Shown here one piece after another: positions 1-450 of a stretch of 64,000 bases of DNA. The DNA comes from Candidatus Aenigmatarchaeota archaeon. GTDB taxonomy: Archaea; Aenigmatarchaeota; Aenigmatarchaeia; CG10238-14; SCSR01. The notes beneath the pieces are model-generated. The model was given only the letters and a program-made list of their open reading frames with translations, made no database searches and was not told the DNA's origin. The position numbers and the translations under genes were made by a program. The stretch lies in the NCBI GenBank assembly GCA_039090665.1, contig JAWCSL010000001.1:46524-110523 (forward strand), given 5' to 3'. The stretch's first letter is position 1, and the number at the start of each line of letters is the position of its first letter.

Positions 1-22
1 CCAGATGGGCAGTTCGGCTGGG

Positions 23-108
23 AGTCTAGAAGTCTAAATGAGGAGTCCCTTAAGTTATGATTTTTTATGATTAAGGGCATACGAACCGAAAGGCTTCTAG
101 ACCAGCAA
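23..108 (+). ncRNA. BHB rRNA intron 1 (86 nt) in the P-loop; contains a C/D-box-like guide RNA
   Basis: Central helix GCTG(17-20)/CAGC(103-106), bulges GGA and AAG, intron stem GTCTAGAAG/CTTCTAGAC; excision restores GGCTGGG|GCGG. Confidence 0.9.
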
Positions 109-163
109 GCGGTACGCCCTCGGTAAAGGATCGAGGGCGCCCAAAGGTCAGCTCATCCGGGTC

Positions 164-252
164 ATGGTAGAGTCTAGTAAATGATTGGACCGTTCCAGAA
201 TGATCTTAATGATTTCTGAGGTAGCTGATGAGAATAGGCTCTACCACCCGCA
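164..252 (+). ncRNA. BHB rRNA intron 2 (89 nt) in the helix-84 loop; contains a C/D-box-like guide RNA
   Basis: Helix CGGG(158-161)/CCCG(247-250), bulges TCA and CAA, stem TGGTAGAG/CTCTACCA; excision restores CGGGTC|AGAAATCCG. Confidence 0.9.
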
Positions 253-396
253 AGAAATCCGGAGTAGAGTGTAAGCGCAAAAGCTGGCCTGACTGGATTC
301 CGCAAAGCGAGGAATCCAGCCGCGAAAGCGTGGGCTAGCGATACTTCGGTTCCTCTTAATGGGGGCCGGAGGTATCAGAAAAGCTACCTCGGGGAT

Positions 397-450
397 AAAC
401 TAGCTAGGGCTGATTAAATTATTTTTCTTCATATCTAGCTAGTTCCCTAA
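397..450 (+). ncRNA. BHB rRNA intron 3 (54 nt) beside the A2450/A2451 equivalents
   Basis: Helix GGGG(391-394)/CCCT(445-448), bulges ATA and AAA, stem AACTAGCTAG/CTAGCTAGTT; excision gives GGGGAT|AATGGG, colinear with the consensus. Confidence 0.85.

Follow-up and report, generated by a model that had tools for sequence, protein, structure and literature searches.

A bulge-helix-bulge intron within the P-loop of 23S ribosomal RNA of an Aenigmatarchaeota archaeon is probably a dual box C/D guide aimed at 16S ribosomal RNA

The stretch of DNA analysed here, called the window, is 64,000 nucleotides (nt) long and corresponds to positions 46524-110523 of contig C1 (JAWCSL010000001.1) in the assembly GCA_039090665.1 of a Candidatus Aenigmatarchaeota archaeon. 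The genome of the window is designated G000, and the other handles beginning with G or L denote related genomes or other DNA sequences. The G000 assembly comprises 620,606 base pairs (bp) in 15 contigs, has a G+C content of ~34%, and is 90.57% complete; the runs containing its DNA are labelled as hot-springs metagenomes. Positions 1-999 of the window are the 3′ third of an archaeal 23S ribosomal RNA (rRNA) gene (Rfam RF02540, model positions 2323-2987, 510.8 bits). The full 23S gene occupies C1:44179-47522 and has 3344 nt, compared with the 2987 positions of the model. The 16S rRNA gene is on the same contig (C1:38869-40605, 1737 nt compared with a model of 1478 positions), ~3.6 kb upstream of the 23S gene, and a transfer RNA (tRNA) gene for alanine, tRNA-Ala, precedes the 23S gene by ~320 nt. 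The subject of this analysis is an 86-nt intron without an open reading frame (ORF), located at window positions 23-108 of the plus strand, inside the 23S P-loop (helix 80). The intron is probably a dual box C/D guide RNA for two sites in 16S rRNA (Table 1).

The intron was delimited by comparison with rRNA models and genes. Relative to the Rfam consensus GgcuGGG-NN-ggcAC (model position ~2340), the G000 sequence has 88 extra bases at 23-110, and relative to an intron-less 23S gene the insertion is 23-108. Joining G22 to G109 produces GGCUGGGGCGGUAC, which restores UGGGGCG in agreement with the Rfam consensus, and the same P-loop sequence is uninterrupted in thirteen of sixteen related 23S genes. 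We take the P-loop guanosines that flank the insertion point to be those that bind the CCA end of tRNA. The borders of the intron form a bulge-helix-bulge structure (BHB) of the canonical hBHBh′ type, in which two 3-nt bulges (GG|A and AA|G) surround a 4-bp helix (GCUG/CAGC) and the cuts lie inside the bulges. The outer 3-bp helix consists of U14.G112, C15-G111, and G16-C110, the central helix of G17-C106, C18-G105, U19-A104, and G20-C103, and the inner stem begins with G24-C102 and can be drawn with 9-12 bp. RNAfold predicted a structure of -35.4 kcal/mol (z -2.87) that contains the central helix (17-21 with 102-106), the 3-nt 5′ bulge, and a long stem, and does not contain the 3-bp outer helix of the BHB motif.

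The RNA data were contigs from four metatranscriptome runs made with standard libraries. One contig in each of three runs (X11, X16, and X20) joins exon position 22 to 109 and skips exactly 86 nt; the source organism of these contigs is unproven. In a second contig from X11, the segment matching exon 109-164 shows 0 differences and is immediately preceded by the final 17 bases of the first exon. The start of the second exon of G000 is shared by four other DNA sequences (L073, L076, L079, and L163), all of which contain the intron, and the intron-less relative G007 differs from G000 at 2 positions of exon 109-164. The contig joints favour splicing of the G000 intron, which they support and do not prove, because intron-less relatives exist. 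No contig depth was present across positions 25-96 in any of the four runs, and contigs of this kind are uninformative about small or circular RNA.

The P-loop is also interrupted in a member of another family. The 23S sequence L020 of genome G024 contains a large insertion located two bases deeper in the P-loop, after GGGGC, and a reading frame of the insertion holds a LAGLIDADG-like string, spotted by eye. Therefore, the P-loop appears to be a site for an endonuclease-type intron as well.

Table 1 Parts of the P-loop intron and of its exon borders (window coordinates)
Feature	Positions	Strand	Remarks
5′ exon side of BHB	14-22	+	5′ half of P-loop; outer helix U14, C15, G16; central helix G17-G20; bulge bases G21 G22, cut after G22
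BHB intron	23-108	+	insertion relative to Rfam model and intron-less 23S
Closing stem, 5′ strand	24-35	+	pairs with 91-102
Box C variant AUGAGGA	38-44	+	sheared-pair bases G40 A41; possible pairing of G42 G43 with C87 C86
D′ guide GTCCCTTAAGTT, 12 nt	45-56	+	complement in 16S
Box D′ variant AUGA	57-60	+	invariant in 11 variants
Variable loop TTTTTT, 6 nt	61-66	+	3-6 nt among variants
Box C′ variant AUGAUUA	67-73	+	GUGAUUA in 4 variants; variation at first (R) position only
D guide AGGGCATACGAA, 12 nt	74-85	+	complement in 16S
Box D variant CCGA	86-89	+	CUGA in 8 variants, CUAA in 2
Closing stem, 3′ strand	91-102	+	pairs with 24-35; covariation
3′ side of BHB	103-112	+	central helix C103-C106; bulge A107 A108 G109, cut after A108; outer helix C110, G111, G112

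The interior of the intron has the layout of an archaeal dual box C/D small RNA (sRNA). Its anatomy was assessed in an alignment of eleven distinct P-loop intron sequences, hereafter the variants, obtained from five genomes and ten metagenome contigs. The sequence-only reading, an earlier note made from the letters of the window, had listed the four boxes and both guides by position and string and had mentioned a terminal stem, and every coordinate and string that it gave is exact (boxes ATGAGGA at 38-44, ATGA at 57-60, ATGATTA at 67-73, and CCGA at 86-89). The loop is TTTTTT at 61-66, and the stem is 24-35/91-102. The 12-nt length that it gave for both spacers is likewise exact in G000 and is kept in the eleven variants, neither guide region of which contains indels; the loop and the spacer preceding box C differ in length. 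All four boxes of G000 retain the GA dinucleotides that tandem sheared pairs require, and the box deviations compensate each other, since the C/D motif can form G42-C87 and G43-C86 and the C′/D′ motif can form U72-A57. Box C reads AUGAGGA in two variants, AUGAAGA in eight, and AUGUAGA in one. The internal boxes follow the pattern AUGA, a 3-6-nt loop, and RUGAUUA, with no variation in D′ or at positions 2-7 of C′. The BHB exon columns 14-22 are also invariant, partly because the search pattern fixed them. An Rfam scan of positions 23-108 returned no C/D family match even at E values up to 10, which is uninformative because the archaeal sRNA families in Rfam are species-specific. The sole C/D-type row of the scan was snoZ165 at 189-258, in the next intron of the 23S gene, which scored 16.5 bits where the gathering threshold is 90.

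Both spacers are complementary to the 16S rRNA of the same genome. The D′ guide (GUCCCUUAAGUU followed by AUGA) pairs at 11 of 12 positions with 16S 925-935 (AACUUAAGGGA; AACTTAAGGGA; C1:39793-39803), forming 11 contiguous Watson-Crick pairs. The D guide (AGGGCAUACGAA followed by CCGA) pairs at 10 of 12 positions with 16S 1304-1315 (TCCGTATGCCCC), 9 of them contiguous; positions 1304-1314 correspond to C1:40172-40182. The target of a box C/D guide is the nucleotide paired to the fifth nucleotide upstream of box D or D′, the N+5 rule. The N+5 targets are U929, paired to A52, and U1308, paired to A81, both of which are inside the duplexes. According to a MAFFT alignment with E. coli rrsH, U929 is E. 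coli position 912 and U1308 is position 1203. Complementarity of at least 9 nt with a paired N+5 nucleotide extends to related genomes, in which the contiguous runs are 10-12 nt long. In the three other genomes that contain both genes, the D′ guide pairs at 11-12 and the D guide at 10-11 of 12 positions, and in all genomes checked the N+5 nucleotide forms a Watson-Crick pair. The 16S rRNA of the genus of G000 reads AAGGG, compared with AAAGG in G023 from another genus, and the guide fits the version of its own genus.

The complements are specific to these sites. Each was found once in the whole assembly, at its 16S position, apart from the opposite strand of the guide itself, and no comparable site was present in the 23S rRNA and 25 tRNAs, where the best scores were 9.5 and 9.0 of 12. 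In shuffle controls against 16S and 23S rRNA, the 11-nt run was reached by 14 of 5000 shuffles of the D′ guide and the 9-nt run by 211 of 5000 shuffles of the D guide. The sequence-only reading had stated that the complements resemble conserved archaeal 16S segments and had proposed a search of this genome's 16S gene for them. The G000 16S gene contains a match to each guide, with the 11 and 9 contiguous pairs described above; one of the archaeal strings that the reading had named, GGTTCGTATGCCCT, does not occur there in that exact form.

The 16S genes of this lineage have introns of their own close to the two sites. In G000, an 88-nt 16S insertion (C1:40083-40170, local positions 1215-1302) ends with 1 nt to spare before the D-guide target, which starts at 1304. 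The same insertion is present in G006 and in the 16S gene on contig C3 of G005, and is absent from G007, G094, and G095. An intron of ~240 nt starts right after the D′-guide target in the 16S genes of G007 and of G005 contig C29. Therefore, the guide targets are 16S intron insertion sites in several relatives. That 16S introns beside the targets are required for guide function was rejected as a rule, as G094 and G095 have the guide and no adjoining intron.

The two guides also belong to known archaeal guide families. We searched the expressed sRNAs of seven archaea listed in supplement 1 of Dennis et al. 2015 (PMC4644070) for words from both guides, and both were found in the same register in sRNAs of Sulfolobus, Thermoproteus, Pyrobaculum, and Methanopyrus. 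In that supplement, the D′ guide matches Sac-sR101 (AUGAAGA GUCCUUUAAGUA CUGA), Tte sR146 (GUCCUUUAAGAG CUGA), Pca sR56 (AUCCUUUAAGAU CUGA), and Mka sR114 (AUCCUUUAAGUG CCGA), and the D guide matches Mka sR52 (GGGGCAUACGGU CUGA) as well as Tte sR134 and Pca sR31 (both AGGCAUACUGG CUGA). The D-guide variant of G095, GGGGCAUACGGU followed by CUGA, is identical to that of Mka sR52. The D guide of Pca sR56 is assigned to 16S U894 in its own numbering (PMC4644070, Table 3). The families can be written as GUCC(C/U)UUAAGU(U/A) followed by NUGA and (A/G)GGGCAUACGGU followed by CUGA, in the same register before the D-type box. Two unusual boxes of G000 are attested in the expressed M. kandleri sRNAs, AUGAGGA as the C box of sR52 and CCGA as the D box of sR114. 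Of all the arguments that both spacers are genuine methylation guides, we give the greatest weight to the family match, which is independent of the shuffle statistics. The likeness may result either from common descent or from convergence on the same site.

The intron is rare, and it was found with its guides. A guide-blind pattern consisting of the exon and BHB ends detected it in 5 of 370 genomes of the class (G000, G005, G017, G094, and G095), which represent three genera of one family, and a guide-based pattern found the same five among the 117 genomes of the order. On metagenome contigs, the guide-blind pattern gave at least 120 matches; among the matches listed, 10 were in 23S context, all 10 with guides, and the remaining 110 were unrelated chance matches. 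A scan of the genome collection for both guides returned seven stretches, of which four are P-loop introns in archaeal metagenome-assembled genomes and three are bacterial chance matches without boxes. One of the five genomes, the 1.7-Mb G005, contains three different 23S genes, one of them only 69% identical to that of G000, and at least two full-length 16S genes with a fragmented third, which suggests a mixed bin.

The closing stem covaries, and the guides are conserved. Six of the twelve stem pairs are changed on both sides among the variants, 98.4% of the cells are paired, and the covariation was equalled by none of 500 shuffles. Six of 35 columns are variable in the guides and internal boxes, compared with 22 of 33 in the stem, loop, and spacer (Fisher p ~6e-5, which is overstated since the sequences are related). 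In the D′ guide, 11 of 12 columns are invariant, and all six columns of the loop are variable. The core of the D guide, GGGCAUACG, is kept apart from a C-to-U change in one variant, which still pairs with G. Substitutions in the guides fall near their ends, and most of them add a pair with 16S rRNA, as do G45 to U (with A), A74 to G (with C), and A84 to G (with C); the change of C82 to U keeps a G.U pair.

Based on the BHB borders, the 16S complements, and the conservation of the intron, a pathway for the production and action of the guide can be proposed. The splicing endonuclease would cut after G22 and after A108, and RtcB would join the exons and probably circularise the intron. The released 86-nt RNA would be a box C/D sRNA with its two 12-nt spacers as guides, in which the terminal stem and the C/D motif may form a kink-turn and the D′/C′ motif a kink-loop. 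Together with L7Ae, Nop5, and fibrillarin, the intron RNA would pair in trans with 16S rRNA and direct 2′-O-methylation of two uridines, those that correspond to E. coli positions 912 and 1203. Each 23S rRNA made would release one guide for the small subunit, because a working ribosome needs the P-loop restored. We infer the stability or circularity of the intron RNA, the assembly of the ribonucleoprotein, the methylation, and the coupling of the subunits. The G000 assembly encodes the splicing endonuclease EndA (PF01974, C12:23832-24110, E 1.5e-27) and the ligase RtcB (PF01139, C14:31340-32644, E 4.6e-165), and the genes of fibrillarin (E 2.9e-87) and Nop5 (E 2.2e-64) are adjacent on contig C3. 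Overall, window positions 23-108 are probably a BHB intron with the function of a dual box C/D guide, the targets of which are 16S positions 912 and 1203. The sequence-only reading had proposed a large-subunit intron with a dual guide aimed in trans at 16S rRNA, and this proposal is supported by the BHB motif, the unique 16S complements with paired N+5 nucleotides, the conservation, the guide families, and the presence of fibrillarin and Nop5 genes, with the methylation predicted from sequence.

Several observations weigh against this interpretation. The outer C and D boxes deviate from consensus and are less conserved than the inner D′/C′ motif; one sheared G.A pair is lost in three of the eleven variants (box C AUGUAGA in G095, and box D CUAA in G017 and L082), and the pair next to the kink-turn in G000 is A36.A90. 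The D guide of G000 is weak by itself, as it has 9 contiguous pairs and an A.C mismatch, and its run is matched by the 211 shuffles mentioned above. The sequence-only reading had warned that the guides can pair with each other, and this hairpin is real: positions 47-53 can form 7 bp with 71-77, and the minimum-free-energy fold from RNAfold uses this pairing. The 7-bp helix is invariant and never covaries, so that covariation cannot judge it either way. Taken alone and folded at 37 °C, the core hairpin has an energy between -9.9 and -11.5 kcal/mol and z values between -1.3 and -1.8, which is not unusually stable, and its stability was matched by 12, 27, and 13 of 200 shuffles.

Two further points against the guide function concern missing genes. 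No L7Ae was found in the 90.57%-complete G000 assembly (TIGR03677 19.4 bits with a cut-off of 134.6; tblastn with the G007 protein E 0.17). The single PF01248 match was rejected as L7Ae, as its location between rpoA″ and nusA marks it, by gene order, as what is presumably L30e. L7Ae is present in all eleven relatives searched, including all seven of the genus. None of the twelve ORFs surrounding the L7Ae (eL8) gene of G007 had a match in G000; of five control loci from G007, four were matched and one was not. Because the G007 neighbourhood has no G000 match, the loss of L7Ae from the G000 data is likely to be an assembly gap. In five close relatives that do not contain the intron (G007, G006, G023, G012, and G016), no replacement guide above control was found in a search for either guide with up to 1 mismatch and a reversed-pattern control. 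Overall, the numbers of matches were close to the control level, with fewer for the D′ pattern and somewhat more for the D pattern in G023 and G016. No convincing box layout was apparent in the 19 contexts inspected, which does not prove the absence of free-standing guides.

The best-surviving alternative, which we nevertheless regard as unlikely, is that the intron, either excised or within the 23S precursor, forms a C/D-type ribonucleoprotein that pairs with the two 16S segments and acts mainly as a chaperone of assembly, or as a checkpoint, by which the subunits are linked, methylation being secondary or lacking altogether. Such a chaperone role was proposed for the dual guides sR15 and sR17 of Nanoarchaeum equitans, which have distant 16S targets (PMC4644070, section 11). 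The positions of the targets suit this role, as the D-guide target of G000 begins 2 nt past a 16S intron and the D′-guide target of G005 ends at one, and the outer boxes weakened in three of the eleven variants would matter less if catalysis were unneeded. However, the guides are in the exact register of the methylation guides of other archaea, the N+5 nucleotide forms a Watson-Crick pair in all genomes checked, and the 12-nt spacer rule is kept. Furthermore, G094 and G095 carry the guide without a 16S intron beside either target.

Ranking behind it, and likewise improbable, is the possibility that the intron is simply a mini-intron of rod shape, or a captured sRNA that is decaying and survives as a relic, with a core kept for splicing or as a hairpin and its 16S complementarity unused. 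The predicted rod, which incorporates the guide-guide helix, would fit this explanation, as would the non-consensus outer boxes, damaged in some variants, the failure to find L7Ae in the assembly, and the restriction of the intron to 5 of 370 genomes. However, the guide-guide hairpin by itself is not unusually stable, and invariant positions are also located outside the hairpin (GUU and CAUACG), while the true stem covaries freely. The changes at the guide ends mostly gain 16S pairs, and two independent in-register family matches are hard to obtain by chance. That the insertion is an expansion segment retained in mature 23S rRNA is very improbable, since nothing beyond its being an insertion in an rRNA gene speaks for it, and it splits the universally conserved P-loop, has BHB ends, and is joined across in RNA contigs.

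A dual methylation guide in the P-loop intron would resemble several known systems and differ from each. One is the euryarchaeal pre-tRNA-Trp intron of Haloferax volcanii and Pyrococcus (sR50), which is removed by BHB splicing from a stable-RNA precursor and itself serves as a dual box C/D guide; its host is a tRNA, and its targets, C34 and U39, are in the exons of the host itself (PMC7994747, sections 6 and 9). In contrast, the P-loop intron is hosted by 23S rRNA, and both its targets are in 16S rRNA. Because the targets are in another RNA, the guide must act in trans. The free-standing sRNAs of other archaea (Sac-sR101, Tte sR146, Pca sR56, and Mka sR114 for position 912; Mka sR52, Tte sR134, and Pca sR31 for position 1203) share guide and register with the intron, and therefore the predicted target nucleotides are the same. 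However, these sRNAs are separate genes, and each of the two guides is in a different sRNA with another partner guide, whereas the intron unites both in one RNA. Moreover, the P-loop intron carries its 912 guide at box D′, whereas the free-standing sRNAs carry theirs at box D.

Like the P-loop intron, the archaeal rRNA introns of Desulfurococcus mobilis, Staphylothermus, and Pyrobaculum are inserted at conserved functional rRNA sites and removed by EndA (PMC3608112). They are hundreds of bases long and often contain homing-endonuclease ORFs (PMC3608112), whereas the P-loop intron has 86 nt, no ORF, and the build of a guide. Section 6 of the same 2013 review called for more work on whether rRNA introns yield non-coding RNAs. 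Eukaryotic intronic box C/D small nucleolar RNAs (snoRNAs) are also intron-hosted methylation guides in genes of the translation apparatus, with their output tied to host expression (PMC7994747, section 9). They reside in spliceosomal introns of protein or non-coding genes and are released by debranching and exonucleases (PMC7994747), in contrast to the rRNA host and the release by the tRNA splicing endonuclease proposed here. The N. equitans sR15 and sR17 come from a similarly reduced DPANN genome and have a D′ guide to the ~900 region of 16S rRNA and a D guide to a site 290-450 nt downstream (PMC4644070, section 11 and Table 3). Unlike the P-loop intron, they aim at other target nucleotides, bind the two strands of one helix, and are encoded by free-standing genes (PMC4644070).

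The class of RNA, the guides, and the splicing route are known; the host, the P-loop insertion site, and the direction from the large to the small subunit are new. The contexts of archaeal C/D genes given in section 9 of a 2021 review are own promoters, overlaps with ORFs, clusters, dicistrons of tRNA and sRNA, and tRNA introns, and rRNA introns are absent from that section (PMC7994747). A full-text literature search, which left subscription journals largely outside its range, found no paper with a C/D guide in an archaeal rRNA intron. If the interpretation of the P-loop intron as a guide is correct, the role of small rRNA introns would go beyond selfish mobility and include a function for the cell, and a minimal genome would express guides without promoters of their own, in a fixed ratio to ribosome output. 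BHB splicing would then constitute a defined biogenesis route for the circular C/D sRNAs of thermophiles, the origin of which is so far unexplained. The intron would be a natural archaeal parallel to eukaryotic intronic snoRNAs, and coupling between the subunits in ribosome biogenesis would become directly testable.

The wider reading that the rRNA genes are the main hosts of methylation guides in this genome-reduced hot-spring DPANN lineage is tentative, and we place it slightly on the doubtful side. According to this reading, the tRNA splicing endonuclease would free a probably circular C/D sRNA from each of the small BHB introns and from the 23S leader, and the P-loop intron would link the subunits, with the synthesis of the large subunit supplying, and maybe pacing, the modification of two conserved sites in the 30S subunit. 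A strict C/D scan of G000 gave six raw candidates and missed the second intron of the 23S gene, so that it is too strict for counting sRNAs.

The second 23S intron is located at window positions 164-252, has 89 nt and BHB ends, and is spanned by an RNA joint from 163 to 253/254. It repeats the C/D layout of the P-loop intron, which counts in favour of the guide interpretation, with AUGAUUG and AUGA around a first 12-nt spacer, a loop of 5 nt, and AUGAUUU and AUGA around a second 12-nt spacer. Its D guide forms 10 Watson-Crick pairs and one G.U pair, of 12, with 23S rRNA at window positions 381-392, and is therefore predicted to act on the RNA that hosts it; for the D′ guide, the rRNAs and tRNAs offer no good target. 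An intron with the same conserved cores is present at this site in ~11 of 16 related 23S genes. Two further insertions, of 54 and 71 nt, are located in the helix-89 region of the 23S gene at window positions 397-450 and 479-549. RNA contigs join position 396 to 451 in all four runs and 478 to 550 in three of the four. The 16S gene has additional insertions of 106 nt (C1:40451-40556, local positions 1583-1688), which includes box-like strings of the UGAUGUGAUGAUGAG type, and of ~80 nt (local ~738-816). The 23S leader contains a C/D-like unit at C1:44086-44140, ~90 nt before the 5′ end of the 23S gene and ~2.4 kb before the window, with the layout AUGAUAA, 11 nt, CUGA, 6 nt, AUGAAGA, 13 nt, and UUGA. 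One of its spacers has a 10-nt complement in 23S rRNA (AGACAGUUCG, window position ~670), and the other has an 8-nt complement in 16S rRNA.

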